A stretch of 64,000 nt of DNA from Zootoca vivipara (lineage: Eukaryota): NCBI RefSeq assembly GCF_963506605.1, contig NC_083288.1, positions 29,388,001 to 29,452,000 of the forward strand, in the 5' to 3' direction. The position numbers and the translations under genes are program-made. Every line of letters begins with the position of its first letter. Within the stretch, counting starts at the first letter, position 1. This document shows, piece after piece, positions 5,721 through 62,145 of this stretch. The notes under the pieces were generated by a model. The model worked only from the letters and a program-made list of their open reading frames with translations. It did not search any database and was not told the origin of the DNA.

Positions 5721-6656
5721 ATGACCAACCATTCTACAGTGACAGAATTTCTTCTGATGGGGTTTTCCAGTGACCGAGAAGAAGAACTGTTTTATCTTGT
5801 GATATTTCTCTCCATTTATTTAATAGCCTTAGTGGGAAATTTCCTCATCATCATTGCTGTTGCTCTGAACCACAAACTGCACACTCCTATGTACTTCTTT
5901 CTGGTCAACCTATCATTATCAGACATTTGCTACATCTCAACCACAATCCCCAAATCCATAGCTGCTTCTTTGTCAGATGACAAAAGGATTTCTTTTGCTG
6001 GCTGTGTCGCACAGGTTTTCTTAGTTTTCACTTTTGCAGGTTCTGAGCTTGCCTTGCTCACGATCATGGCTTATGATCGCTATGTTGCAATCTGCCATCC
6101 TCTGCAGTATGAGCTAATCATGAACTGGGATGCCTGCATCCAAATGGCAGCTGCTTCCTGGATAAGCACCCCAATCCATTCATCGTTACATACCATTATC
6201 ACTTTCAGGCTACATTTCTGTGGGTCCAATATTATTGGGCAGTATTTCTGTGATATTCCTCAGCTGCTAAAGATTTCTTGTACTGACACAAAGCTTAACC
6301 AAATTTTGATTTTTGCCATTGGGATTATAGTAGATTCATTTTGTGGAGGGTTCATCTTTGTTTCCTATGGCTACATCTTCTCTGCTGTGCTGAGAATCCC
6401 ATCTGTTCAAGGCAGATATAAAGCTTTCTCTACCTGCATCCCCCACCTGACTGTCTTTTCTATATTCATCATCACAGCTGTGTTTTCATACATGAGACCT
6501 AAAGAGCTTTCTTCTACAATGATGGATTTGCTCTCTGCTGTATTGTATAATGTTTTGCCACCACTACTGAATCCCATTATTTATAGCTTGCGGAACAAAG
6601 ACATCCAAGAGGCCGTGTTGAAAATACCGGAAAGAATTAGAAATCTCCTAGCATGA
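5721..6656 (+). CDS. Olfactory receptor, class II, family 14-like (311 aa)
   Basis: Single-exon 7TM ORF with N-glycosylation site NHS, GN, LHTPMYFFL, MAYDRYVAIC, KAFSTC and PPLLNPIIYSLRN. Confidence 0.97.
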   Translation: MTNHSTVTEFLLMGFSSDREEELFYLVIFLSIYLIALVGNFLIIIAVALNHKLHTPMYFFLVNLSLSDICYISTTIPKSIAASLSDDKRISFAGCVAQVFLVFTFAGSELALLTIMAYDRYVAICHPLQYELIMNWDACIQMAAASWISTPIHSSLHTIITFRLHFCGSNIIGQYFCDIPQLLKISCTDTKLNQILIFAIGIIVDSFCGGFIFVSYGYIFSAVLRIPSVQGRYKAFSTCIPHLTVFSIFIITAVFSYMRPKELSSTMMDLLSAVLYNVLPPLLNPIIYSLRNKDIQEAVLKIPERIRNLLA

Positions 6657-13364: not shown

Positions 13365-14300
13365 ATGGCCAACCAGACTACACTGACAGAATTTCTTCTG
13401 ATGGGGTTTTCCAGTGACCGAGAAGGAGAACTGTTTTACCCTGTGATATTTCTTTCCATTTATTTAATAGCCTTAGTGGGAAATTTCCTCATCATCATTG
13501 CTGTTGCTCTGAACCACAAACTGCACACTCCTATGTACTTCTTTCTGGTCAACCTATCATTATCAGACATTTGCTACATCTCAACCACAATCCCCAAATC
13601 CATAGCTGCTTCTTTGTCAGATGACAAAAGGATTTCTTTTGCTGGCTGTGTTGCACAGGTTTTCTTAGTTGTGAATTTTGTAGGTTCTGAGCTTGCCTTG
13701 CTCACAATCATGGCTTATGATCGCTACGTTGCAATCTGCCATCCTCTGCAGTATGAGCTAATCATGAACTGGGATGCCTGCATCCAAATGGCAGCTACTT
13801 CCTGGATAAGCAACCTAATTCATTCGTCATTACATACCATTATCACTTTCAGGCTTCATTTCTGTGGGTCCAATATTATTGGGCAGTATTTCTGTGATAT
13901 CCCTCAGCTGCTAAAGATTTCTTGTACTGACACAAAGTTTAACCTAATTTTGATTTTTGCCATCGGGATTACAGTAGATTCATTTTGTGGAGGGTTCATC
14001 TTTGTTTCCTATGGCTACATCTTCTCTGCTGTGCTGAGAATCCCATCTGTTCAAGGCAGATATAAAGCTTTCTCTACCTGCACCCCCCACCTGACTGTCT
14101 TTTCTATATTCATCATCACAGCTGTGTTTTCATACATGAGACCTAAAGAGCTTTCTTCTACAATGATGGATTTGCTCTCTGCTGTATTGTATAATGTTTT
14201 GCCACCACTACTGAATCCCATTATTTATAGCTTGCGGAACAAAGACATCCAAGAGGCTGTGTTGAAAATACCGAAAAGAATTAGAAATCTCCTAGCATGA
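13365..14300 (+). CDS. Olfactory receptor, family 14-like (311 aa)
   Basis: Complete OR motif set; upstream donor GT at 12635 and acceptor ttttag at ~13275. Confidence 0.97.
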   Translation: MANQTTLTEFLLMGFSSDREGELFYPVIFLSIYLIALVGNFLIIIAVALNHKLHTPMYFFLVNLSLSDICYISTTIPKSIAASLSDDKRISFAGCVAQVFLVVNFVGSELALLTIMAYDRYVAICHPLQYELIMNWDACIQMAATSWISNLIHSSLHTIITFRLHFCGSNIIGQYFCDIPQLLKISCTDTKFNLILIFAIGITVDSFCGGFIFVSYGYIFSAVLRIPSVQGRYKAFSTCTPHLTVFSIFIITAVFSYMRPKELSSTMMDLLSAVLYNVLPPLLNPIIYSLRNKDIQEAVLKIPKRIRNLLA

Positions 14301-21405: not shown

Positions 21406-24350
21406 ATAGAATCATAGAATCATAGAATCATAGAGTTGGAAGAGACCACAAGGGCCATCCAGTCCAACCCCCTGCCAAGCAGGAAACACCATCAAAGCAT
21501 TCCTGACAGATGGCTGTCAAGCTTCTGCTTAAAGACCTCCAAAGAAGGAGACTCCACCACACTCCTTGGCAGCAAATTCCACTGCCGAACAGCTCTTACT
21601 GTCAGGAAGTTCTTCCTAATGTTTAGGTGGAATCTTCTTTCTTGTAGTTTGAATCCGTTGCTCCGTGTCCGCTTCTCTGGAGCAGCAGAAAACAACCTTT
21701 CTCCCTCCTTTATATGACATCCTTTTATATATTTGAACATGGTTATCATATCACCCCTTAACCTTCTCTTCTCCAGGCTAAACATACCCAGCTCCCTAAG
21801 CCGTTCCTCATAAGGCATCGTTTCCAGGCCTTTGACCATTTTGGTTGCCCTCTTCTGGACACGTTCCAGCTTATCAGTATCCTTCTTGAACTGTGGTGCC
21901 CAGAACTGGACACAATACTCCAGGTGAGGTCTGACCAGAGCAGAATACAGTGGTACTATTACTTCCCTTGATCTAGATGCTATACTCCTATTGATGCAGC
22001 CCAGAATTGCATTGGCTTTTTTAGCTGCTGCATCACACTGCTGACTCATGTCAAGTTTGTGGTCAACCAAAACTCCTAGATCCTTTTCACATGTACTGCT
22101 CTCAAGCCAGGTGTCTCCCATCCTGTATTTGTGCCTTTCATTTTTTTTGCCCAAATGTAGTACTTTACATTTCTCCTTGTTAAAATTCATCTTGTTTGCT
22201 TTGGCCCAGTTGTCTAATCTGTTAAGGTCATTCTGAAGTGTGATCCTGTCCTCTGGGGTGTTAGCCACCCCTCCCAACTTGGTGTCATCTGCAAACTTGC
22301 TCAGGATTCCCTCAAGCCCATCATCCAAGTCATTGATAAAGATGTTGAACAAGACTGGGCCCAAGACAGAACCCTGTGGCACCCCACTAGTCACTACTCT
22401 CCAGGATGAGGAGGAGCCATTGATGAGCACCCTTTGGGTTCGGTCAGTAATCCAGCTACAAATCCACTGAATGGTAGCATTGTCTAGCCCACATTTTACC
22501 AGCTTCTTTACAAGAATATCATGGGGCACCTTGTCAAAGGCCTTGCTGAAATCAAGATAGGCTACATCCACAGCGTTCCCTTCATCTACCAGGCTTGTAA
22601 TTCTGTCAAAAAATGAGATCAGATTAGTCTGACATGACTTATTTTTCAGGAACCCATGCTGACTTTTAGTGATCACAGAGTTTCTTTCTAGGTGCTCACA
22701 GACTGTTTGCTTAATGATCTGCTCTAGAATCTTTCCTGGTATTGATGTCAGGCTGACTGGGCGGTAATTGTTTGGGTCCTCTCTTTTCCCCTTTTTGAAA
22801 ATAGGGACAACATTTGCCCTCCTCCAGTCTGCTGGAACTTCGCCTGTTCTCCAGGAATTTTCAAAGATTATTGCCAGTGGTTCTGAAATCACCTCTGCCA
22901 GTTCTTTTAATACTCTTGGATGTAGTTCATCTGGCCCTGGAGACTTGAATACATCTAAACTAGCCAAGTATTCTTGTACTACCTCCTTACTTATTCTGGG
23001 CTGTGTTTCCCCTGCTGAATCATCTGCTCCATATTCTTCAGGTCGGGCGTTGTTTTCTTTCTTGGAGAAGACAGAGGCAAAGAAGGCATTGAGGAGTTCT
23101 GCCCTTTCTCTGTCCCCTGTTTGCATTTCACCATCTTCTCCTCTGAGTGACCCCACTGTTTCCTTGTTTTTCCTTTTGCTACGGACATACCCATAAAAGC
23201 CCTTTTTGTTGCTTTTAACCTCTCTGGCGAGCCTGAGTTCATTCTGTGCTTTAGCTTTTCTGACTTTGTCTCTACACGTGCTGGCTATATGTTTGAATTC
23301 CTCTCTGGAGATTTCCCCCCTTTTCCATTTTTTGTACATATCCCTTTTAAATCTTAACTCAGTCAAAAGTTCTTTAGATAGCCAGCCTGGCTTCTTTAGG
23401 CACCTTCCATGTTTCCGTCTCATTGGTATTGCCTGAAGTTGTGCTTTTAATATCTCCCTTTTAACAAACTCCCAACCATCATGAACTCCCTTCCCTTTTA
23501 GTATTACTGTCCATGGGATTTCACCCAGCGTTTCCCTAAGTTTTCTGAAGTCGGCTTTCTTAAAGTCTAGAATTTGGACCTTAGTATGCTTGGTTGCTCC
23601 TTTCCGCTGGATAATAAACTCCAGAAGAGCATGGTCACTCCCACCTAATGATCCTGCCACTTCTACCCCACTAACCAAGTCATCACTATTGGTTAGGACC
23701 AGATCTAAAATGGCTGATCCTCTTGTTGCTTCTCCCACTTTCTGGACAATGAAGTTGTCTGCAAGGCCAGTGAGGAATCTGTTCGACCTTATGCTCTTGG
23801 CTGAGTTTGACATCCAACAAATATCAGGATAGTTGAAATCCCCCATTACTACTATCTCACTTCCTTTGGAATGCTTGGCCATCTGTTCCAGGAAGGCATC
23901 ATCTGTGTCCTCAGTTTGGCTTGGGGATCTATAGTAAACTCCCACAATGAGATCACTGTTGTTTTTCTCTCCCTTAATTTTGACCCAGATACTCTCAATT
24001 TGGCTTTGAAGTTTTAAATCCTGGATCTCTTCACAGGTATACATATCCCTAACATATAAAGCTACTCCTCCTCCTTTCCTGTTTGGTCTATTTCTCTTAA
24101 ATAGATTGTATCCCTCTATTACTACATTCCAGTCATGAGACTCATCCCACCAGGTTTCAGTGATGCCTATTATGTCATATTTAGTTTGCTGTACCAAGAG
24201 CTCAAGTTCATCTTGTTTATTTCCCATGCTCTGTGCATTAGTATACAGACATTGAAGACCGTTGATCATTCCCCCATGTCTCTTATTTAAGGATATTTTC
24301 GTCCCACCACTAGGTCTGCATGCTGCTTGCTCCATTTGGTCCTTGACATT
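21406..24350 (-). mobile_element. CR1 LINE, 5'-truncated just upstream of ORF2
   Basis: (ATTCTATG)n 3' tail at 21406-21433; ORF2 present; no ORF1 seen. Confidence 0.96.
21492..24335 (-). CDS. CR1 ORF2: APE endonuclease plus reverse transcriptase (947 aa, uninterrupted)
   Basis: YTNA, ITETW, GDFN and SDH endonuclease motifs; [18 protein letters not shown] and FADD RT motifs; CR1 C-terminus RRLRGD...WN.LP. Confidence 0.95.
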
Positions 24351-25936: not shown

Positions 25937-26092
25937 ATAATTATTCTTGATCATCTGAAATGATTTTAATGATTCAGTGTGCAGTCTTCATCTGCTTATT
26001 AGATATGAAATTTCAGATCGACTTTCTAGAATGGTGGTTCCTTTACCCTCTTTAGTTAATTCAGTGTGGTCTCTCCCTCTCATCCAAATGTT

Positions 26093-27911
26093 TTGTTGTC
26101 GTTTAGGCGTGTCCGACTCTTCGTGACCCCATGGACCATAGCACGCCAGGCACTCCTGTCTTGCACTGCCTCCCGCAGTTTGGTCAAACTCATGTTCGTA
26201 GCTTCGAGAACACTGTCCAACCATCTCGTCCTCTGCCATCCCCTTCTCCTAGTGCCCTCCATCTTTCCCAACATCAGGGTCTTTTCCAAGGATTCTTCTC
26301 TTCTCATGAGGTGGCCAAAGTATTGGAGCCTCAGCTTCAGGATCTGTCCTTCCAGTGAGCACTCGGGGCTGATTTCCTTAAGAATGGATAGGTTTGATCT
26401 TCTTGCAGTCCATGCGACTCTGAAGAGTCTCCTCCAGCACCAAAATTCAAAAGCATTAATTCTTCGGCAATCAGCCTTCTTTATGGTCCAGCTCTCACTT
26501 CCATACATCACTGCTGGGAAAACCATAGCTTTAACTATACGGACCTTTGTTGGCAAGGTGATGTCTCTGCTTTTTAAGATATTGTCTAGGTTTGTCATTG
26601 CTTTTCTCCCAAGAAGCAGGTGTCTTTTAATTTCGTGACTGCTGTCACCATCTGCAGTGATCAAGGAGCCCAGGAAAGTAAAATCTCTCACTGCCTCCAT
26701 TTCCTCCCCTTCTATTTGCCAGGAGGTGATGGGACCAGTGGCCATGATCTTGGTTTTTTTGATGTTGAGCTTCACACCATATTTTGCGCTCTCCTCTTTC
26801 ACCCTCATTAAAAGGTTCTTTAATTCCTCCTCACTTTCTGCTGTCAAGGTTGTGTCATCTGCATATCTGAGGTTGTTGATATTTCTTCCGGCAATCTTAA
26901 TTCCGGTTTGGGATTCATCTAATCCAGCCTTTCGCATGATGAATTCTGCATATAAGTTAATTAAGCAGGGAGACAATATACAACCTTGTCGTACTCCTTT
27001 CCCAATTTTGAACCAGTCAGTTGTTCCATATCCAGTTCTAACTGTAGCTTCTTGTCCCACATAGAGATTTCTCAGGAGACAGATGAGGTGATCAGGCACT
27101 CCCATTTCTTTAAGAACTTGCCATAGTTTGCTGTGGTCGACACAGTCAAAGGATTTTGCATAGTCAATGAAGCAGAAGTAGACGTTTTTCTGGAACTCTC
27201 TAGCTTTCTCCATAATCCAGCGCATGTTTGCTATTTGGTCTCTGTTTCCTCTGCCCCTTCGAAATCCAGCTTGCACTTCTGGGAGTTCTCGGTCCACATA
27301 CTGCCTAAGCCTGCCTTGTAGAATTTTAAGCATAACCTTGCTAGCATGTGAAATGAGCGCAATTGTGCGGTAGTTGGAGCATTCTTTGGCACTGCCCTTC
27401 TTTGGGATTGGGATGTAGACTGATCTTCTCCAATCCTCTGGTCATTGCTGCATTTTCCAAACCTGCTGGCATATTGAGTGTAGCACCTTAACAGCATCAT
27501 CTTCTTGATGTCTTCTGCTTCTGTTAGGTCCTTATCACTTTTGTCCTTTATTATGGTAATCTTTGTACAAAATGTTCCTTTCATATCTCTATCTTATTTT
27601 TCTTGAACATATCTCAGGTTTTCCCCCATTCTATTGTTTTCCTCTATTTCTTTGCATTGCTCATTTAAGAAGACCCTCTTGTCTCTCCTTGCTATTTTTT
27701 CAAAATCTGCAATTCAGTTTCCTGTATCTTTCACTATCTCCCTCGCATTTTGCTTGCCTCCTCTCCCCCGCTATTTGTAAGGCCTCGTGGCGAAGGGGCT
27801 TAAGTAATTCAGAGAAGTTATGTTTTGACCAAATGTGATCCACCTGGAGAAGGAACCGGCAAGCCACTCCAGTATCCCTGTCAAGAAAACTCGATGGACA
27901 AAGACAACAGG
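26093..27911 (-). mobile_element. BovB/RTE LINE, truncated, with internal deletion and inverted 5' piece
   Basis: RT ORF 26080-27333 (FIDYAKSFD, GVRQGCILSP, YADD, KSRTRLND); (CAA)-type tail; 12-bp TSD catccaaatgtt at 26081-26092 and 27912-27923. Confidence 0.95.
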
Positions 27912-40778: not shown

Positions 40779-41714
40779 ATGACCAACCAGTCTACAGTGA
40801 CAGAATTTCTTCTGATGGGGTTTTCCAGTGACCGAGAAGAAGAACTGTTCTACCTTGTGATATTTCTCTCCATTTATTTAATAGCCTTAGTGGGAAATTT
40901 CCTCATCATCATTGCTTTTGCTCTGAACCACAAATTGCACACTCCTATGTACTTCTTTCTGGTCAACCTATCATTATCAGACATTTGCTACATCTCAACC
41001 ACAATCCCCAAATCCATAGCTGCTTCTTTTTCAGATGACAAAAGGATTTCTTTTGCTGGCTGTGTCGCACAGGTTTTCTTAGTTTTCACTTTTGCAGGTT
41101 CTGAGCTTGCCTTGCTCACAATCATGGCTTATGATCGCTATGTTGCAATCTGCCATCCTCTGCAGTATGAGCTAATCATGGACTGGCATGCCTGCAACCA
41201 AATGGCAGCTGCTTCCTGGATAAGCAACCTAATTCATCCATCATTACAGACCATTATCACTTTCAGGCTACATTTCTGTGGGTCCAATATTATTGGGCAG
41301 TATTTCTGTGATATTCCTCAGCTGCTAAAGATTTCTTGTACTGACACAAAGCTTAACCAAATTTTGATTTTTGCCTTTGGGATTATAGGAAATTCATTTT
41401 GTGGAGGGTTCATCTTTGTTTCCTATGGCTACATCTTCTCTGCTGTGCTGAGAATCCCATCTGTTCAAGGCAGATATAAAGCTTTCTCTACCTGCATTCC
41501 TCACCTGACTGTCTTTTCTTTATTTATGAGCACAGCTGTGTTTTCATACATGAGACCTAAAGAGCTTTCTTCTACAATGATGGATTTGCTCTCTGCTGTA
41601 TTGTATACTGTTTTGCCACCACTACTGAATCCCATTATTTATAGCTTTCGGAACAAAGACATCCAAGAGGCCGTGTTGAAAATACCGGAAAGAATTCGAA
41701 ATCTCCTAGCATGA
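40779..41714 (+). CDS. Olfactory receptor, family 14-like (311 aa)
   Basis: Complete OR motif set; upstream donor GT at 40067 and a second module with GT at 38256. Confidence 0.97.
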   Translation: MTNQSTVTEFLLMGFSSDREEELFYLVIFLSIYLIALVGNFLIIIAFALNHKLHTPMYFFLVNLSLSDICYISTTIPKSIAASFSDDKRISFAGCVAQVFLVFTFAGSELALLTIMAYDRYVAICHPLQYELIMDWHACNQMAAASWISNLIHPSLQTIITFRLHFCGSNIIGQYFCDIPQLLKISCTDTKLNQILIFAFGIIGNSFCGGFIFVSYGYIFSAVLRIPSVQGRYKAFSTCIPHLTVFSLFMSTAVFSYMRPKELSSTMMDLLSAVLYTVLPPLLNPIIYSFRNKDIQEAVLKIPERIRNLLA

Positions 41715-47316: not shown

Positions 47317-48252
47317 ATGGCCAACCAGTCTACAGTGACAGAATTTCTTCTGTTGGGGTTTTCCAGTGACCCAAGTGAACAATTTTTGTACTTTGTGATA
47401 TTTCTCTCCATTTATTTAATAGCCTTAGTGGGGAATATCCTCATCATCATTGCTGTTGCCCTGAACTACAGACTGCATACTCCTATGTACTTCTTTCTAG
47501 GCAACCTATCATTATCAGACATCTGCTACATCTCAGCCACTATCCCCAAATCCATTGCTGCTTCCTTGTCAGATGACAAAAGGATTTCTTTTGCTGGCTG
47601 TGTTGCACAGGTTTTCTTAGTTGTGAATTTTGTAGGTTCTGAGCTTGCCTTGCTCACAATCATGGCTTATGATCGCTATGTTGCAATCTGCCATCCTCTG
47701 CAGTATGAGCTAATCATGAACTGGGATGCCTGCATCCAAATGACAGCTGCTTCCTGGATAATCAGCCCAATCCATTCATTGTTACAAACCATTATCACTT
47801 TCAGGCTAGATTTCTGTGGGTCCAATATTATTGGGCAGTATTTCTGTGATGTCCCTCAGTTGCTAAAGATTTCTTGTACTGACCCAAAGCTTAACCAAAT
47901 TTTGATTTTTGCCATTGGGGTTATACTAAATTCATTTTGTGGAGGGTTCATCTTTCTTTCCTATGGCTACATCTTCTCTGCTGTGCTGAGAATCCCATCT
48001 GTTCAAGGCAGATATAAAGCTTTCTCTACCTGCACCCCCCACCTGACTGTATTTTCTTTATTTATGAGCACAGTTGTGTTTTCATACATGAGACCTAAAG
48101 CGCTTTCTTCTATAACAATGGATTTGCTCTCTGCTGTATTGTATAATGTTTTGCCACCATTACTGAATCCCGTTATTTATAGCTTTAGGAACAAAGACCT
48201 CCAGGAGGCTGTGTTGAAAATACCGAAAATAATTAGAAGTCTTCTGGCATGA
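47317..48252 (+). CDS. Olfactory receptor, family 14-like (311 aa)
   Basis: Complete OR motif set; donor GT at 46709 and acceptor ttttag at ~47225. Confidence 0.97.
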   Translation: MANQSTVTEFLLLGFSSDPSEQFLYFVIFLSIYLIALVGNILIIIAVALNYRLHTPMYFFLGNLSLSDICYISATIPKSIAASLSDDKRISFAGCVAQVFLVVNFVGSELALLTIMAYDRYVAICHPLQYELIMNWDACIQMTAASWIISPIHSLLQTIITFRLDFCGSNIIGQYFCDVPQLLKISCTDPKLNQILIFAIGVILNSFCGGFIFLSYGYIFSAVLRIPSVQGRYKAFSTCTPHLTVFSLFMSTVVFSYMRPKALSSITMDLLSAVLYNVLPPLLNPVIYSFRNKDLQEAVLKIPKIIRSLLA

Positions 48253-51632: not shown

Positions 51633-52353
51633 TTCAATGTGAAGGTCTTTTGTTTGGCATATTGCGTGTCATCTTTAAATGAATTCCACAGTATAGCAAG
51701 TTTTTGCTCTAAGCAACGGTTCTATATTCGCATACACTTTCACAAATAGGGTGAACTCTATCAGTTCTTGGAAGTTGACCTCCGTTCCCCTTTGTGGAAT
51801 TACTTCCCCTGTGTGAAACTCCAGTCTTATATTTTCCAAAAGGATGTGGCATGGGTGTAGACAGGGGGGGGGCAGGAGGGGGCAGCTGCCCCCCCTAGAA
51901 GCAAAAAATTATTGTATTTTACAGACCATAACCAATACTTTGCCCCTCCAAAAACTGAAGTGGAAAGGGCTTTGCTTTAGCAAGAGCAGCTCTCCACTTG
52001 CTGGGGGCGGGAACACAGCTGTAACAAAAACACATCAAATAAATAAAGCAAAGTGGCTACCAGTACTTAAGCAGTTAAGACAATGGAGCAGAATATCCCT
52101 TCAGGCAAGGTCCACCCTATTCACCCTATCGTTATTCAGTGGGAGTTGTTAATGGGCATTCAGGGATCGCATTAACAGTTCTATTGGCGATTTAATGAGG
52201 GTGCAGAGGATTCAGTTTGACTAAGGTGGCCCTGCAAGGCTAAAAGGAAGTGAATAAGAAGGGGGGGGCTGTAGCTTTGATAGACACAGTGATGTTTATA
52301 AAAAGCATTGGTGTTCCAGTCTGCCCCTCCTCCTGCATCTGTATACTGTAAAT

Positions 52354-52689
52354 CAGGGGTGGCCACCTCCCAAGAGACTCTGATCTACTCACAGAGTTAA
52401 AAACTGGGAGTGATCTACCCCCTTTTGGGGGGTTCAGGTCAAAGCTGTTGAGTTTTTTTAAGGAAGGGAAGCCCTGTTTTGGGGGGTTTAGGTCAAACTT
52501 GTTGAGCTTCTTTTAGGAGGGAGGGAGGCCCATTTTTGTTTAGGGCTTCAGGTCATAGTTCAGCTTTTTTTAGGGAGGAGGAAAAATTTGGGTGAGCTTT
52601 TTTTAGGGGTGCCAGTGATCTAGCAGTGATCTACCACAGACATCCAGTGATCTACTGGTAGATCACAATCTACCTGTTGGACGTGCCTG
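52354..52689. mobile_element. Nested hAT (Charlie-like) MITE
   Basis: cagggg...gcctg ends, gatctac repeats, perfect 8-bp TSD ctgtaaat. Confidence 0.88.
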
Positions 52690-52748
52690 CTGTAAATCAA
52701 GCAGAGAGAAAGCTGCTTACAAGGCTCCTGTACAGGTGTACCGGTATC

Positions 52749-54320
52749 TTCCTCTTGTTGCAGAGTTCTAGCATTACAGCGTCACCCAGAGGCACCCACA
52801 AATGTGAGTTATCCCTCTCTCTATTTCTTCCTTCCTTTCCTCCCTCTTCCATCCTCAATAAAATACTGGGGGGGGGGGCAGATAAGCCCCACATAGAAAG
52901 CCCATCAACATGGGGGGGGGACTCTTTAAAATACAGTATTTACCAGTAATTTCTTTTTTTGGGGGGGGAGGCACCTAGGCCTCTAGGAGTTGGCTGCTAT
53001 GCCTAGGACAATTCAAGAAAGCAGAATCATGCATATACTATGGTAATATATCAATAGAATCATGGAATTGTAGTCGGAAGGGACCACAAGGGTCATCTAG
53101 TCCAACCCCCTGCAATGCAGGAATTTTTCCCCAATGTGGGGCTTGAACCCACAACATGGTTGAAATATTATGCTGATATGCAGCAACGCCTCGGAGCCAT
53201 CGAGACTGCGACCCTGTCTTGCCTCGCCCTCGCCTGCCCTGCCACCCCCTCTCCCCTGCCCGACCCTCCCATCCTCTTGCTGCAGAGTTCCAGCTTCACA
53301 GCATCACCCAGAGGCACCCACAAATATGAGGTATCCCTCTCTCTATTATTCCTTCCTTCCCTCCCTCTTCCATCCTTAATAAAATACTGGGGGGGGGCAG
53401 ATAAGCCCCACATAGAAAGCCCATCAAAATGGGGGGGGGTGACTCTTTCAAATACGGTATTCACCAGTAATTGGGGGGGGGGGAGAGGCACCTAGGCCTC
53501 TAGGATTTGGCTGCTATGCCTAGGAGTAGGACAATTCAAGAAAGCAGAATGATGCATATGCTATGGTAATATATCAATGGAATCATAGAATTGTAGTCGG
53601 AAGGGACCACAAGGGTCATCTAGTCCAACCCCCTGCAATGCAGGATTTTCCCCCCAAGGTGGGGCTTGAACCCACAACATGGTTGAAATATTATGCTGAT
53701 ATGCAGCAACGCCTCGGAGCTGTCGTGACTGCGGCCGTGCCTTCCCTCACCCTCACCCGCCCTGCCACCCCCTCTCGCCTGCCCGACCCTCCCGTCCTCT
53801 TGCTGCAGAGTTCCAGCATCACAGCGTCACCCAGAGGCACCCACAAATATGAGTTATCCCTCTCTCTATTTCTTCCTTCCTTCCCTCCCTCTTCCATTCT
53901 TAATAAAATATGGGGGGGGCAGATAAGCCCCACATAGAAAGCCCATCAACATGGGGGGGATGACTCTTTCACATACGGTATTTACTAGTATTTTTTTTGG
54001 GGGGGGGAAGGCACCTAGGCCTCTAGGAGTTGGCTGCTATGCCTAGGAGTAGGACAATTCAAGAAAGCAGAATGATGCATATGCTATGGCAATATATCAA
54101 TAGAATCATAGAATTGTAGTCGGAAGGGACCACAAGGGTCATCTAGTCCAACCCCCTGCAATGCAGGAATTTTTTCCTAAGGTGGGGCTTGAACCCACAA
54201 CATGGTTGAAATATTATGCTGATATGCAGCAACGCCTCGGAGCCGTCGTGACTGCGGCCGTGCCTTGCCTTGCCCTCGCCCACCCTGTCACCCCCTCTTG
54301 CCTGCCCGACCCTCCCGTCC
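52749..54320. repeat. Tandem array of three ~523-bp units
   Basis: aatcat.gaattgtagtcggaagggaccacaagg at 53058, 53581 and 54104. Confidence 0.92.
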
Positions 54321-55309
54321 TCTCCAGCCAAGCAGGGTAGCCGCCGCCGTTGCCAGCCCCAGAAGCACAAGGTGGCCGCTGCCGCCACCACGATGTCGTC
54401 AGGCCAGCTGGCCCTGTAGCCCCGCCCATGTTCCCACTTTGTGGCCCCGCCCCTGAATGATCATGGCTCCCCCCCCCCCCTAGTTTTGATCCTGGCTACG
54501 CCCTTGGGATGCTAAAAAGATAGAATTTTATATATTTACATTCATTGAGGATTCAAACTTAATAGTCACTCTCTTAAGGCACAACACTTCATTTTAGAAA
54601 GGTTACGTATGTGGGTCGCAATAGTTTCAGGCAAAAATTCTTTACAGAGAACATTTAAGCCCCAGTTAGCATTCTTGTTTAAAACTAGTCTCAGGATAGA
54701 CTATTTCCAACTAAATTGGATATTTGTGTCACTGCCTAGCAAGAATCTCACAGCCCCTTCTAGAGTTTTCCCCTTAGCTTCAGGGAAGCAAATTGAGTTG
54801 CCCTCTACAGCTAATCCCTAAATATAATCAGAACAGGCCCTTCTCACCCCAGGTTCCTAAACATGGGCTCATCCAAGATGTGAGAGGTTTTCTTCTTCTT
54901 TCACTGCTCCATTTCCCAAGAAAACCTACTTTTTAGCTTCAAATAGAAAGAAATGACAATCAACAGAAAAGTCAAAGGATTTTATCTCTGTATTATTATT
55001 GTCTGTATTTGCATTAGGATAAAGTAACTGCCTTTTGGTTCCAGAGGGTACAGCTACTATTGGTTCATTTAAGCTGCTGTATTTGGATCCTCTGTCTTAT
55101 TGGTTCCCTCCAAAAGGCAGCACTGTGATTGCCTGATATTGTTCCCTCCAAAATGTATCCCCTTCTAGCTAGTTCCCTGTCCCTATAAATGTAGCCTTCC
55201 TGCCCTCACAGTCAGTCTTGTTCACTTTAATAAAGAGCTGTTACTAGAGAACTGTCTCCAGCATGTTATGTCAAGAGAGCTGAAATCACAAACCCCACGT
55301 CACAACAAC

Positions 55310-55327
55310 TGGCGACGAAGGTGGGAT
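55310..55327 (+). promoter_or_regulatory. Primer binding site, tRNA-Ser(GCT)-type
   Basis: TGGCGACGAAGGTGGGAT two bases after the 5' LTR, complementary to the 3' end of vertebrate tRNA-Ser(GCT) as recalled. Confidence 0.8.
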
Positions 55328-55434
55328 CCGGAATGCTGAGGAGCGGTTAAACACAACCCTGCCTCAGAGTCCGGATTGCAGCTGAGAACAAGACTCACTG
55401 GCCAGCTGAGAAGACGACCCTGCCCGCTAGGACA

Positions 55435-58400
55435 ATGGAGAGTCCAAGGGTATTGGAGCCCTTCCAGCCATCAGAGCCCCACACCTGGGAAGACTACGTC
55501 GAACGCTTCGAGTTCTTCACAGTGGCTCAAGGGATCACCGATGCCAGCAAAAGAAGGGCCACATTCCTGAGCTACTGTGGGCCCGAGACCTTCAAGCTAG
55601 CCAAGGCATTACTTGCTCCAGCGAAGCTGAGTGAGACATCTCTCCAAGATATTCTTGCCTGCCTAACAAGCCACTTGGCGCCTACTGAGACCAAGATGGC
55701 CCGGCGGATGGAGTTCCATAAGAGGCAGCAGCATGCTGGGGAGTCTGTATCCGCATTTCTGGCTGAACTCCGGAAGCTCGCTCAGCACTGCGGCTTCCAA
55801 AATCTGGAAGAGACTCTCCTGGATCGGTTTATTGGTGGTCTGAGCAGCAAGAAAGCCAGAAGACGCATCGTGGCTAAAGAAGAGGTTACCCTTGCTTCAG
55901 CCTTGAAGGAGGCCACCGCCACGGAGAATTATGAAAGAGAGGAGCTTGATGCCAGTCGCAAGGCCACTAAGCCACAGATAGAAGTTGCGCATGCCATGGA
56001 CGAGCTAGAGGCTACTCCGAGCCAGAGCCCAGTCCGTGGGGTCGAGTTGGTGCGTCAGGCCTGCACAGTGCACAAAGATCACCGAGGCAGTTGCCCAGGT
56101 TGTGGCGGAAACCATGGGCGGAAGAGTTGTCGTTTCAGGGATGCTATGTGCCGGATGTGCGGGAAGACAGGTCATATCGCCAGGGTCTGTAGATCGGCGG
56201 CGTCAGGAGCAACAGGAGCACCTAGACTGGAGCATCGCAGACCGCCCACAGCAACTCATTTTCGAAAGGACTGCCACTACATAACGGAGATCAACGGGAG
56301 GGCCGTGCAGTTTCCAGCGCAAGGCAAGGCACACGTCAAGGTGAAGATTGAGGGTCAGCAGTGCGACATGGAGGTGGACTCTGGATCTGCATTCACCATC
56401 GTGTCGGACCAGACCGCGAAGACATTCTTCCCCAGGGGTAGGTTGCCCCCTCTGGAGCCCTTCCCGGCAACCTTGCAGTCGTACTCAGCAGGCCGCATCC
56501 ATGTTATGGGAATGTGTGCTGTGAGAGTACAGTTCCGGGACAAACAGGCTGTACTCAAACTGGTGATTGCGAAGGGCAGTCGCCCCAGTCTCCTGGGCAC
56601 TGACTGGTTCCCCGCCCTGGGACTGAGTATCTCAGGGCTTAATTCAATCCAAACCTGCCCTGAGATGAGCGAGGCATTATGCAAGGAATTTGCTGGTCTC
56701 TTTAATGGAAAACTGGGTTGTTATAAAGGGCCCCCAGTTGACTTCGAGTTGGACCCCGGGGTGGCCCCAATCCGACTCAAACCAAGGCGAGTGCCATTTG
56801 CACTGCAACCCAAGATCGAGGCAGAGCTGGATAAATTGGTCAAGCAGGGAGTTCTCTCACCCGTGGACTCTGCTAAGTGGGAGACTCCAATCGTCACGCC
56901 CCTTAAAGCAAATGGGGAAGTCAGGATATGTGCAGATTACAAATGTACTATCAATAAGGCACTCAGGGGAAACTCATACCCCATTCCAGTCGTATCACAT
57001 CTGTTGGCTAAACTGGCTGGGGGCAAGGTGTTCGCCAAAATTGACCTGGCACAAGCTTACCAACAGCTGCCAGTAACCCCACAATCAGCGGAAGCACAGA
57101 CTATTGTCACACATAAAGGGGCGTTCAGAGTTAACAGATTACAGTTCGGAGTTTGTGTGGCCCCAGGGATTTTTCAAGGGCTCATGGAACGCTTGTTAAG
57201 GGGTCTGCCGGGGGTCTTGCCATTTTTTGATGACGTTTTGATTGCTGGAAAAGACCCACAGGAACGGGTTGCGCGTGTCCGTGCAGTGTTGCTCAAGTTC
57301 AAGGAGGTGGGGTTGCAACTGAAAAAAGAAAAATGCAGTTTTGGGGTGCCAACTGTGGATTTCTTGGGGTTTAAAATTGATGCATCAGGCATCCACCCCA
57401 CAGATGCTAAGATTAAGGCCATCATCGAGGCACCACGACCACAGAACAAGACGGAGTTGCAGTCATTCCTGGGACTTATTAACTTTTATCATTTATTCTT
57501 ACCCCAGAAAGCTTCGGTAGCTGAACCATTACATAGACTTTTGCAGAAAAAGAATGTGTGGCGATGGGGGCGGGAGCAGCAGAAGGCTTTTGACTCCTTG
57601 CGAGAAATGCTGAGTAGCAGGAGCGTCCTTGCTCATTATGATGAGTCGAAGCCGCTGGTCTTGGCATGTGATGCCTCTCAATACGGCCTGGGGGCTGTGC
57701 TGAGTCATAGGGAACCGGATGGGTCGGAAAAGCCCATCTCTTTCTATTCCCGTACGTTGTCACCCACGGAGCGCAACTATGCTCAAATTGATAAAGAGGC
57801 ACTAGCAATTGTGTCAGGAATCAAAAGGTTCTATGATTATTTGTACGGTCGCCATTTCTCCATTGAAACGGACCACAAACCACTGTTAGGGTTGTTCAAC
57901 CCAAACAAACAAACACCACAAATTCTCTCCCCCAGAATGTTGCGTTGGTCAATATTCCTGAATGGGTTCCAGTACACCTTGACCCATGTGCCGGGGAAAC
58001 AGTTGTGCCACGCTGATGCACTGAGTCGATTGCCCCTTCCTGGCGGGAGCAATGAGGATCCTGCTCCGGCGGAGCACATTATGATGCTAGAAACATTTCC
58101 GGGGGCTCCTGTAACAGCTACTGATATAGCTGAGAAAACGAGGAAAGATGCTGTTCTCTCCCGTGTGCTCACTTGGGTGGGGAGGGGGTGGCCAGGTGGT
58201 CCGTATGAAGAAAAATTCAGGCCTTATGCGACAAGGCAGCACGAATTGTCCATGCATAAGGGTTGTCTCCTATGGGGAGATAGGGTGATCATCCCAGCAC
58301 CACTGAGAAACAGGGTTCTTGAGACGCTTCACATGGGACACCCGGGAATGGTCAGGATGAAGTCGCTAGCCCGATGTTATGTGTGGTGGCCTGGAATGGA

Positions 58401-59511
58401 CCAGAACATAGAACAATGGGTACGAACATGCAAGGCATGCCAAGAGGTGCGGCCAGAAGTGGCCAGAGCACCAGTCCACTGGTGGGAGCAGTCCAGGACT
58501 CCCTGGAGCCGGCTGCACATAGATTTTGCTGGGCCATTCCAAGGGAAGGTCTTTTTGGTTATCGTTGATGCATATTCCAAATGGTTAGAAGTGGCGATGG
58601 TCCCTAGCATGGCATCAGCTGCCGTAATCAAGGTGTTGAGGCAGCTGTTTGCAACCCATGGGTTACCTGAGACCATTGTATCAGATAATGGGGCAGCTTT
58701 TGTATCCCAAGAATTCAGGGCATTCTTGGCTGATAACTTCATAAGAGGGGTCACATCCGCGCCCTTTCACCCATCCTCCAATGGGCAGGCTGAGCGCATG
58801 GTAAGAACAGCCAAAGAATCCATTGCGCGCTTAATGGAGGGTAACTGGTCAGCTCGCATTGCGCGAATGTTATTTTTGCAGCATGCGACGCCGTGTACTG
58901 CGACGGGCAAGTCGCCAGCTGAGCTGCTCTTAGGTAGAAGACTGGTAACGGTGCTGGATTATGTCCACCCAGATAAAATGTCAAACCGTAATTCAAGAGC
59001 AACCCCCCAGGCTGAGACTGACACAACAAGGTATCTCGCCCCTGAAGATCTGGTCTGGGTGAGGAACTATTCACGAGGTCCGCGGTGGGTGGCCGGTGTG
59101 ATCACCCGGACTAGTGGACCTGTGTCCTATTATGTGACCTTGGAAAATGGGCAAGTTTGGAAGAGACATATAGATCAGCTGAGGCGCCGGGCGCTCAGCA
59201 GGGAGGAGTCAGATAATTCATCCCTGGCTAATGACGCACAGCTGCGAGACCAGAGTGAAGATGGCCCAGAGGTGCAGTCACCAGGGGCTTCCGCAAATGA
59301 ACCAGGGCCTGCTAGTCCTCAGGATGACGAGGTACAGGTAGGGGACCCTGAGATGTCTGGGACTCCATCTGTTCCTGACGAAACCCCTATAGCAGCCCCT
59401 CCACCACAGGTAACACCCAATCCAGAACCTGCAACACCTGTTGTCAGGAGATCAAGTAGAAGTTGTAGGACCCCACAGTACCTGAGGGATTACGTCTGCT
59501 GTGCTCACTAG
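55435..59511 (+). CDS. Gag-Pol polyprotein (1358 aa, single ORF)
   Basis: Two zinc knuckles (CPGCGGNHGRKSC, CRMCGKTGHIARVC), protease VDSGS, RT FFDD, RNase H CDAS/TDHKPL/ADALSR, integrase HHCC and HIDF...SDNG...AER. Confidence 0.97.
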   Translation: MESPRVLEPFQPSEPHTWEDYVERFEFFTVAQGITDASKRRATFLSYCGPETFKLAKALLAPAKLSETSLQDILACLTSHLAPTETKMARRMEFHKRQQHAGESVSAFLAELRKLAQHCGFQNLEETLLDRFIGGLSSKKARRRIVAKEEVTLASALKEATATENYEREELDASRKATKPQIEVAHAMDELEATPSQSPVRGVELVRQACTVHKDHRGSCPGCGGNHGRKSCRFRDAMCRMCGKTGHIARVCRSAASGATGAPRLEHRRPPTATHFRKDCHYITEINGRAVQFPAQGKAHVKVKIEGQQCDMEVDSGSAFTIVSDQTAKTFFPRGRLPPLEPFPATLQSYSAGRIHVMGMCAVRVQFRDKQAVLKLVIAKGSRPSLLGTDWFPALGLSISGLNSIQTCPEMSEALCKEFAGLFNGKLGCYKGPPVDFELDPGVAPIRLKPRRVPFALQPKIEAELDKLVKQGVLSPVDSAKWETPIVTPLKANGEVRICADYKCTINKALRGNSYPIPVVSHLLAKLAGGKVFAKIDLAQAYQQLPVTPQSAEAQTIVTHKGAFRVNRLQFGVCVAPGIFQGLMERLLRGLPGVLPFFDDVLIAGKDPQERVARVRAVLLKFKEVGLQLKKEKCSFGVPTVDFLGFKIDASGIHPTDAKIKAIIEAPRPQNKTELQSFLGLINFYHLFLPQKASVAEPLHRLLQKKNVWRWGREQQKAFDSLREMLSSRSVLAHYDESKPLVLACDASQYGLGAVLSHREPDGSEKPISFYSRTLSPTERNYAQIDKEALAIVSGIKRFYDYLYGRHFSIETDHKPLLGLFNPNKQTPQILSPRMLRWSIFLNGFQYTLTHVPGKQLCHADALSRLPLPGGSNEDPAPAEHIMMLETFPGAPVTATDIAEKTRKDAVLSRVLTWVGRGWPGGPYEEKFRPYATRQHELSMHKGCLLWGDRVIIPAPLRNRVLETLHMGHPGMVRMKSLARCYVWWPGMDQNIEQWVRTCKACQEVRPEVARAPVHWWEQSRTPWSRLHIDFAGPFQGKVFLVIVDAYSKWLEVAMVPSMASAAVIKVLRQLFATHGLPETIVSDNGAAFVSQEFRAFLADNFIRGVTSAPFHPSSNGQAERMVRTAKESIARLMEGNWSARIARMLFLQHATPCTATGKSPAELLLGRRLVTVLDYVHPDKMSNRNSRATPQAETDTTRYLAPEDLVWVRNYSRGPRWVAGVITRTSGPVSYYVTLENGQVWKRHIDQLRRRALSREESDNSSLANDAQLRDQSEDGPEVQSPGASANEPGPASPQDDEVQVGDPEMSGTPSVPDETPIAAPPPQVTPNPEPATPVVRRSSRSCRTPQYLRDYVCCAH

Positions 59512-59522
59512 GGGGGGAGGGG
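59510..59522 (+). promoter_or_regulatory. Polypurine tract
   Basis: agggggggagggg immediately precedes the 3' LTR and overlaps the stop codon. Confidence 0.9.
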
Positions 59523-59872
59523 TGTTGTGTATTGAGTCAAAGGATTTTATCTCTGTATTATTATTGTCTGTATTTGCATTAGGATAAAGTAACTGCCTTT
59601 TGGTTCCAGAGGGTACAGCTACTATTGGTTCATCTAAGCTGCTGTATTTGGATCCTCTGTCTTATTGGTTCCCTCCAAAAGGCAGCACTGTGATTGCCTG
59701 ATATTGTTCCCTCCAAAATGTATCCCCTTCTAGCTAGTTCCCTGTCCCTATAAATGTAGCCTTCCTGCCCTCACAGTCAGTCTTGTTCACTTTAATAAAG
59801 AGCTGTTACTAGAGAACTGTCTCCAGCATGTTATGTCAAGAGAGCTGAAATCACAAACCCCACGTCACAACA

Positions 59873-60914
59873 GGGCTTGAACCCACAACATGGTTGAAAT
59901 ATTATGCTGATATGCAGCAACGCCTCGGAGCCGTCGTGACTGCGGCCGTGCCTTGCCTTGCCCTCGCCCACCCTGTCACCCCCTCTTGCCTGCCCGACCC
60001 TCCCGTCCTCTCCAGCCAAGCAGGGTAGCCGCCGCCGTTGCCAGCCCCAGAAGCACAAGGTGGCCGCTGCCGCCACCACGATGTCGTCAGGCCAGCTGGC
60101 CCTGTAGCCCCGCCCACGTTCCCACTTTGTGGCCCCGCCCCTGAATGATCATGGCTTGCCCCCCCCCTAGTTTTGATCCTGGCTACGCCCTTGGGATGTG
60201 GTTATCTTTTATTAAGATTTTGTGAAATTATATCAGTGGCCGCTGTGTCAGACTCACCACTAAAGGTGGGAGGTGAGTTACATGACCAATTTCCTGGGTT
60301 TCTAAAAGATACAACACCTCCTAGTAACAACACTGGAGACATGTGTTTTAACTCTTTGTCAGTAAAAAACAGCCAGGTGTTCTACTTATTAGAAGGATGC
60401 CCTGGGTCCACCTATCTCCCACCAAAGGCTCAAAGTAATGAGGATGCACTTCTGCTAAAAAGATAGAATTTTATATATTTACATTCATTGAGGATTCAAA
60501 CTTAATAGTCACTCTCTTAAGGCACAACACTTCATTTTAGAAAGGTTACGTATGTGGGTCGCAATAGTTTCAGGCAAAAATTCTTTACAGAGAACATTTA
60601 AGCCCCAGTTAGCATTCTTGTTTAAAACTAGTCTCAGGATAGACTATTTCCAACTAAATTGGATATTTGTGTCACTGCCTAGCAAGAATCTCACAGCCCC
60701 TTCTAGAGTTTTCCCCTTAGCTTCAGGGAAGCAAATTGAGTTGCCCTCTACAGCTAATCCCTAAATATAATCAGAACAGGCCCTTCTCACCCCAGGTTCC
60801 TAAACATGGGCTCATCCAAGATGTGAGAGGTTTTCTTCTTCTTTCACTGCTCCATTTCCCAAGAAAACCTACTTTTTAGCTTCAAATAGAAAGAAATGAC
60901 AATCAACAGAAAAG
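59873..60914 (+). repeat. Direct duplication of 54185-54971 flanking the Gypsy element
   Basis: Near-identical; the left copy lacks ~255 bp (60199-60454). Confidence 0.95.
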
Positions 60915-61155: not shown

Positions 61156-62145
61156 CTACAGAGAGAAATGGAACCTTTTCAGGAAAAGCCTGGAAAAGAT
61201 ACTCATAGAAGAGTGCTTCACACCCAAGAGTTTTGATACAGCATTTTTAATCTCTTTATTTCTCATGCTGTAAATTATTGGATTGAACATGGGTGGTACA
61301 ATGGTATATATCACAGTTATTGCGAAGTCACCATCAGATGGAGTTTTTGAAGGAGGCCTAAGGTAAGCAAAACATCCTGTGAAACTAAATAAGAAGAAGA
61401 CAACAAGGTGAGGTATGCAAGTGGAGAAAGCCTTTTTCCTTCCCTGAACAGATGGAACATTCAGAACAACAGTAAAGATGTGCACATAAGTGACAACGAT
61501 GAAGACAAAACATCCAAACACAAATGTTATGCTCACCAACAAGACTCCAATTTCTGTAAGGTATAAATTAGAGCAGGCAAGTGTAAGTAACTGTGGGATC
61601 TCACAGAAAAACTGATTGACAATGTTTGAGCAGAAAGGGGTTGCAAAAGTTGTACTAGTGTGCATGACTGCATTGAAAATTCCAGCAACCCACACACCAG
61701 CAACCATTTGTTTGCAGGCTGCCCTGTTCATCACCATTTCATATTGTAATGGATTGCAAACGGCAACATAGCGATCATATGCCATGACTGTAAGAAGGGC
61801 AGTATCGGATGATAAAAAGAAAAATAATAAAAGCACTTGAGCAACACATCCAGCATAAGATATGTGTCTGATATTCATGAGAGAATTGGCCATGGATTTG
61901 GGGATGGTGACTGAAACAGCCCCTAGGTCCAGTATGGCCAAGTTCATCAGAAAGAAGTACATGGGGGTGTGAAGGTGGTGGTCAAAAGCTATGGCAGAGA
62001 TGATGAGAAGATTCCCAAATACAATTGCCAGGTACAATACCAGGAAGAGAGAGAAGTGTAGAATCTGCAGTTCCCGTACAGCTGAAAACTCCAGGAGTAG
62101 AAATTCAGGGACAGAGGATTCATTGCCTATCTTTGCATTCATCAT
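61156..62145 (-). CDS. Olfactory receptor, family 14-like (about 329 aa from MMNAK)
   Basis: NES, GN, LHTPMYFFL, MAYDRYVAVC, KAFSTC and PPMFNPIIYSMRN; splice acceptor ttttcttttAG at 62164-62163. Confidence 0.95.
   Translation of the reverse strand: MMNAKIGNESSVPEFLLLEFSAVRELQILHFSLFLVLYLAIVFGNLLIISAIAFDHHLHTPMYFFLMNLAILDLGAVSVTIPKSMANSLMNIRHISYAGCVAQVLLLFFFLSSDTALLTVMAYDRYVAVCNPLQYEMVMNRAACKQMVAGVWVAGIFNAVMHTSTTFATPFCSNIVNQFFCEIPQLLTLACSNLYLTEIGVLLVSITFVFGCFVFIVVTYVHIFTVVLNVPSVQGRKKAFSTCIPHLVVFFLFSFTGCFAYLRPPSKTPSDGDFAITVIYTIVPPMFNPIIYSMRNKEIKNAVSKLLGVKHSSMSIFSRLFLKRFHFSL

Follow-up and report, generated by a model that had tools for sequence, protein, structure and literature searches.

A Gypsy element with a clipped U3 end and a discontinuous flanking duplication in Zootoca vivipara: a probable one-ended germline integration

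Results

Organization of the locus

The window (the whole 64,000-nucleotide stretch analysed here, positions 29,388,001 to 29,452,000 of contig NC_083288.1 in the Zootoca vivipara assembly GCF_963506605.1) carries an array of OR genes, in which a Gypsy element has inserted into an older DNA transposon. The features are as follows, in window positions:

21492-24335 (947 aa) and 26080-27333 (417 aa), minus strand: reverse-transcriptase-like frames of non-LTR elements, presumably CR1-like and RTE-like
47317-48252: nearest OR frame to the left, named OR from its sequence
51842-51849, plus strand: left 8-bp TSD of the TIR element, the same as 60194-60201
51850-54506, plus strand: non-coding TIR DNA transposon, hAT-like, with imperfect TIRs; the target of the Gypsy element, with copies elsewhere 97-99% identical
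54185-54511, plus strand: block 1 of the derived left copy; TIR 3' end with five of the eight TSD bases, pairing with 59873-60198
54510-54971, plus strand: block 2 of the derived left copy; host sequence of 462 bp, 100% identical to 60453-60914
54970-55307, plus strand: 5' LTR, aligning to LTR bases 13-350, its U3 end without the first 12 bp
55308-55327, plus strand: PBS-like sequence directly after the 5' LTR, with a 2-nt spacer followed by a TGG start
55435-59511, plus strand: single gag-pol ORF of 1358 aa, in the order protease-RT-RNase H-integrase, without env
59510-59522, plus strand: polypurine tract adjoining the 3' LTR, read from the sequence
59523-59872, plus strand: full-length 3' LTR, 350 bp, TG...CA, its U5 CA joined to the TIR element with a microhomology of 0
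59873-60201, plus strand: right (original) copy, TIR 3' end with the full 8-bp TSD, identified by family match and TSD
60197-60452, plus strand: right-only segment of 256 bp, whose limits slide by 2 bp
60453-60914, plus strand: right (original) block 2, continuous with unique host sequence; the stop codon of the OR frame at 61156-62145 is 241 bp away
61156-62145, minus strand: nearest OR frame to the right, named OR from its sequence

Four close OR paralogs (5721-6656, 13365-14300, 40779-41714 and 47317-48252) lie in kb-scale repeats of 90-98% identity, and no Gypsy LTR copies were found at the borders of these four.

The transposon that served as target has a longest stop-free frame of 145 aa. 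Given its short TIRs, its 8-bp TSD and its lack of coding capacity, all of which it has in common with non-autonomous hAT elements, we take it to be a non-autonomous hAT-like element, differing from these in carrying about three (2-3) tandem units of 523 bp (52750-54323). Its family is young (97-99% identity) and abundant, with more than 2000 candidate places in an initial search, and falls into size classes of about 2.1 and 2.6 kb, roughly one 523-bp unit apart (L260-L275). An 8-bp TSD was present in all 16 other copies fetched. At the window locus the full TSD is found at 51842-51849 and 60194-60201, while the left copy of the duplication described below holds only five of its bases.

The Gypsy element is young, intact in frame and clipped at one LTR

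The 1358-aa frame gave Pfam matches to RVT_1, RT_RNaseH, Integrase_H2C2 and rve (RT at residues 501-648, RNase H at 711-845 and integrase at 953-1113) and, in addition, contains a protease-like motif at residue 314 and a zinc-knuckle motif; no second frame of at least 150 aa was found inside the element. The element thus has the features of Ty3/Gypsy, namely LTRs with TG...CA, a PBS-like sequence, a polypurine tract and the pol domain order without env, the 5' LTR being clipped.

An earlier note on this DNA had described one complete and one shortened LTR, a microhomology at the left junction, a single base difference between the LTRs, an intact ORF and the absence of a short TSD, and each of these points was confirmed. 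The 3' LTR is complete at 350 bp, running from TG to the CA at 59872, while the alignment of the 5' LTR begins at LTR base 13, so that its first 12 bp are missing, and the two bases AG are common to the left flank and the 5' LTR. Over 338 bases there is a single mismatch between the LTRs (55069 T versus 59634 C); the 31 other LTR matches all carry T, so that the C at 59634 is peculiar to the 3' LTR. The frame is open throughout 55435-59511, and neither junction shows a 5-bp TSD. The element is a young Gypsy copy and a real insertion with an intact frame, at which the short fixed TSD and two intact ends of a concerted integration are not found. None of 128 sampled copies qualified as a near-identical donor, the closest differing at 22 of 4215 bases.

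The flanking duplication is discontinuous and its left copy is derived

The earlier note had also reported a 1042-bp duplication of the flank. The right side is indeed 1042 bp long (59873-60914), but the left copy measures only 787 bp and consists of two blocks between which 256 bp are skipped. Block 1 differs from 59873-60198 by three substitutions and one inserted base, located at two places. Block 2 joins block 1 at TG and the 5' LTR at AG. The skip at the TG microhomology amounts to 256 bp and the net difference in length between left and right to 255. The duplication begins at the exact base that is joined to the U5 CA. The earlier note had not recognized block 1 as the 3' terminus of a high-copy transposon.

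The polarity of the two copies was read from three sources. The right copy is identical across 321 bp to the TIR family copies L039 and L040, and it retains the full TSD. The skipped 256 bp are ancestral, since they were found in six paralogous OR flanks. Point changes were compared at 30 loci, two of which were the window's own copies, leaving 28; the CpG change of the left copy occurred at none of the 28 and its poly-C change partly at one. All derived changes are thus on the U3-side (left) copy, and the right copy shows the family state with the full TSD. Together, the TSD, the six OR flanks and the 28-locus comparison indicated that the TIR element was there first, that the right copy is original and that the left copy is derived. 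The two copies differ by two point differences where about 2.3 are expected at the LTR divergence rate, so that these differences fit ordinary ageing; error-prone synthesis was considered as their source and set aside as unneeded. From the Gypsy element to the OR stop codon, the OR strand carries a single canonical poly(A) signal, a putative one at 60208-60213, and it lies inside the skipped 256 bp.

As to the neighbouring genes, the earlier note had proposed that an insertion of this kind could seed duplications in an OR cluster. This idea was not supported: there is no OR coding sequence in or between the two copies, so that an exchange between them would change the number of Gypsy elements, by loss or by multiplication, and not that of OR genes, and the window locus gives no route to OR gene duplication. 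A product of this type, with an additional LTR-plus-flank unit, is seen in the family copy L136. A second, internally deleted Gypsy copy of the same family and strand (L197, on G000:C13) lies about 125 kb upstream, with part of the window OR array between it and the window element, and the pair is a possible recombination substrate across OR genes. A link between the two copies was considered, as the deletion of L197 starts near the same LTR base, and was rejected on 17 differences in 2117 bp.

Support for the junctions in assembly and reads

The window contains no N, and the same holds for nine odd loci of the family. Raw reads were searched in four runs, about 6% of each, which gave a depth of 0-3 over most unique sequence (about 1x), and at this depth no junction was held by at least three reads. 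Among short-read contigs, the skip junction is held without differences by a 58-nt contig of run X15 (54482-54539). This contig falls under the rule of 31 letters per side that we applied for bridging, and a junction piece built from 31-mers would be expected to measure 58 nt when the microhomology is 2 bp. The X15 contigs also branch where block 2 begins. In run X1 a contig passes the start of block 2 with loose ends that go on as native right flank, a pattern that fits an allele without the skip. The flank-LTR and LTR-TIR junctions were not among the contig pieces listed for the four runs, which does not speak for their absence. Contig depths include paralogs and were not taken as copy numbers.

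Target site duplications across the Gypsy family

The earlier note had suggested a survey of TSD length and clipped ends in this LTR family, and we ran it on samples. The family has at least 373 matches to a 5' inner anchor and 395 to a 3' inner anchor. In the main sample, the first 100 listed matches of each anchor set gave 88 paired elements on C1-C3, all of which were fetched. The results showed that a 5-bp TSD is the norm: 78 of the 88 have a perfect one with intact ends, and 83 of the 88 fall here if near-normal copies are included. The five near-normal copies comprise two one-mismatch TSDs, one copy without the first TG, one with an LTR-internal deletion and one whose U5 tip carries a point change. 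Long duplications meeting both junctions were found in four of the 88 (421, 271, 320 and 71 bp; 95% interval 1.3-11%), and one further copy has a 30-bp U3 clip without a duplication. A second sample of 20 further pairs, picked by an exact 32-mer in both LTRs, contained 19 normal copies, one unmatched copy and no long duplication (0/20). In a third sample of 19 regions at unpaired anchors, 13 had both outer ends, none of them with a long duplication (0/13), and six were truncated or rearranged. The pooled rate is 4 of 121 (interval 0.9-8%), and a matching accident is thus seen in about 3-5% of the related copies examined. Counting three from the clip-targeted search described below along with the four sampled, seven other family copies have long flanking duplications. 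Two copies, L072 and L140, have exact TG and CA ends and yet long duplications. Within the element, the two LTRs are identical in 68 of 83 cases.

Seven loci with unmatched flanks or clipped ends (L199, L209, L084, L195, L171, L162 and L165) may be target deletions or hybrids; no far duplications touching the junctions were found within 8-9 kb per side for L084 or within about 10 kb per side for L162, L165, L195, L199 and L209.

Several copies showed other peculiarities. L136 (G000:C2:115396190-115404104) has three LTRs, the 320-bp duplication, a 24-bp filler and an extra LTR-plus-flank unit, and such a unit would be expected from unequal recombination of solo and full alleles. L085 and L152 lack exactly the first TG of U3 and retain a perfect 5-bp TSD. 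In the three one-mismatch TSDs seen in all (L073, L103 and L250), the U3-side base at position 4 or 5 is a G, which may be a retained overhang of the G-rich polypurine tract. L178 and L179 (G000:C3, 2.85 and 2.90 Mb) are one solo LTR with its flanks, present on opposite strands 42 kb apart, and represent an inverted segmental duplication younger than the LTR insertion.

The damaged end

Searching the genome with a pattern for altered U3 tips returned 11 matches. Clips of 6-12 nt account for five of them, and a long duplication accompanies four of the five clips: the window locus, L167 (30-bp duplication, clip of 7 nt), L168 (82 bp, 10 nt) and the solo LTR L154 (46 bp with three mismatches, 9 nt). 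The corresponding pattern for U5 gave 14 matches; among the seven that were fetched there were three real clips, none with a duplication, and the other seven were judged from the matched text. The difference between U3 and U5 clips in carrying duplications is not significant (p = 0.14), and both patterns detect short clips only and by design miss about a quarter. Fillers at the U3 end were found in L136, where the 24 bp are a re-copied LTR start and flank end, and in L099 (2 bp). L072 has 4 bp of microhomology at its U5 junction. Where a damaged end could be assigned it was U3 in six of six cases (p = 0.03), or in six of seven (p = 0.125) if L072 is counted against, with three of the six U3 assignments stemming from the U3-directed search; a bias of failure to the U3 end is thus suggestive only.

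Discussion

One-ended integration completed by host repair

The window element probably represents a one-ended integration that host repair completed, switching template on the way. At the U5 end the CA is joined precisely and without homology, the U3 end has lost 12 bp and meets the flank in 2 bp of AG, and a large duplication is anchored at U5. The AG overlap itself is short enough to arise easily by chance and says little alone. Integrase would have joined the clean U5 end only. The free U3 3' end would have been trimmed and would have annealed at AG, some 1 kb distant from the site of integration. Synthesis primed there would have run back toward that site, copying 462 bp, jumping over 256 bp of template at TG and being resolved by homology with the left arm, in block 1. 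Alternatively, the host's own 3' end may have been extended, with an identical product. We infer these steps from their product, which is what is observed. The discontinuity of the duplication calls for either a template switch or a second event, and we lean, by a modest degree, to placing the skip in the same event as the insertion over an earlier origin on the template allele or a later one. Counting against the one-ended reading, none of the seven other cases shows an internal skip, and the X15 contig could derive from a separate deletion allele without Gypsy. The natural germline one-ended integration proposed in the earlier note thus fits the locus and finds company in seven further family copies, but long germline duplications have a precedent in HERV-K and the duplication had to be redescribed as discontinuous.

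Alternative explanations

The same map would result if a normal Gypsy insertion with a 5-bp TSD had later undergone a microhomology-mediated unequal exchange, in which an empty allele, perhaps with the 256-bp deletion, was joined 12 bp inside the 5' LTR. The skip and the point differences would then be allelic, the X15 skip junction and the branch at block 2 are also what a separate deletion allele would give, and post-insertion deletions do cut LTRs of this family (L074, L163 and L197). We nevertheless regard a later exchange as unlikely, given the identity of block 2 over 462 bp and the chance break 12 bp from the LTR tip that it demands; in addition, it leaves unexplained the exact ends and long duplications of L072 and L140 and the duplications at four of the five U3 clips of 6-12 nt.

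Much less probable is an involvement of the TIR ends, where an abortive cut by a transposase acting in trans would have made the 256-bp deletion or begun the repair of the left copy. One breakpoint does lie 3-5 bp beyond the TIR, within its TSD, the first five TSD bases are repeated 11 bp before the landing point, and the TIR family is young (97-99% identity). The break is, however, away from the TIR tip, the clipped LTR and the seven other cases would be unaccounted for, and our literature search on adjacent deletions of hAT elements gave nothing relevant.

A false duplication assembled from two merged haplotypes has, in our view, a slightly smaller chance still. The region is full of young repeats and the flank-LTR junction went without read confirmation, but neither the window nor the nine odd loci contain an N, the 2-bp junction overlap is unlike an assembler overlap, both flanks are native to the locus, the skip junction occurs in short-read contigs, and seven other copies are similarly built. 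Least probable of all is a pseudo-TSD, that is, a hybrid recombined from two insertions about 1 kb apart on different alleles (a model found in the sections of PMC5488345 used here): although intact-end elements with unmatched flanks exist (L199 and L209) and 19% of between-element LTR pairs differ by at most one edit, a hybrid is unlikely because the LTRs of the window element are one difference apart and only two of 83 other elements have a 5' LTR so close, the clip would go unexplained, and paired insertions within 30-1000 bp seem implausible for 3-5% of copies.

Implications for the Gypsy family

A broader picture can be entertained, which we put forward tentatively and at rather less than even chances: a vertebrate Gypsy family that is (very) recently or currently active might fail at its U3 end in roughly one of 25 germline insertions, repair then producing duplications of 30-1000 bp or deletions, sometimes with template switches. 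LTR retrotransposition would in that case supply small structural variants steadily and with a bias to one end. Were this true, TSD-based annotation would be discarding such LTR-made structural variants, and this Gypsy family would settle that long TSDs arise at integration. With at least 373-395 young copies, several of them with clips and templated fillers, the family offers a natural germline series in which one can measure how often long duplications occur, which end they favour and how they originate.

Comparison with known systems

One-ended accidents are known already from ASLV, HIV and XMRV, and long germline TSDs from HERV-K (PMC5041404; PMC2857682; PMC5488345; each cited for the sections used here). 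In one-ended proviruses of ASLV and HIV-1, ends can be truncated and joined through short homology, more than one template can be used, and the duplications measure hundreds to thousands of bp; in the model given there, the free viral 3' end is elongated by a host polymerase that copies DNA close by, recombination closing the gap (PMC5041404, sections used here). The window Gypsy has in common with them one integrase-made end, a truncated other end with short homology and a large host duplication, whereas those cases, as that source presents them, were obtained in cell culture with mutated ends, with inhibitors or with a weakened integrase, and the window element is a natural chromosomal Gypsy without env. 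For wild-type XMRV, clone C-3, one of 15 sites, lost 5 bp of U3 in its left LTR and carries a 273-bp duplication (PMC2857682, sections used here); it is likewise U3-clipped with a duplication, but is somatic, continuous and, in that part of the source, a single case.

The nearest germline comparison is HERV-K (HML-2), where 8 flanking duplications of more than 10 bp, up to 450 bp, were recorded among 451 putative TSDs in a search that reached 500 bp only, and where the authors, in the sections used here, left open whether long TSDs are true TSDs or recombination products (PMC5488345). Both HERV-K and the window Gypsy are germline elements with long duplications, HERV-K being a retrovirus family; the window Gypsy differs from what that source describes in its 1042-bp span with an internal skip, and the clipped ends and fillers found in its family suggest that the damage dates from the insertion itself. 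Our literature search, at the level of titles and abstract openings and with most subscription journals outside its scope, returned no work that surveys long TSDs among Gypsy elements or other LTR elements outside the retroviruses. The window Gypsy is a new example of a known accident, complex but expected, and what is added is the series of family copies, through which the origin of long TSDs, the point left open for HERV-K in that part of PMC5488345, becomes testable.
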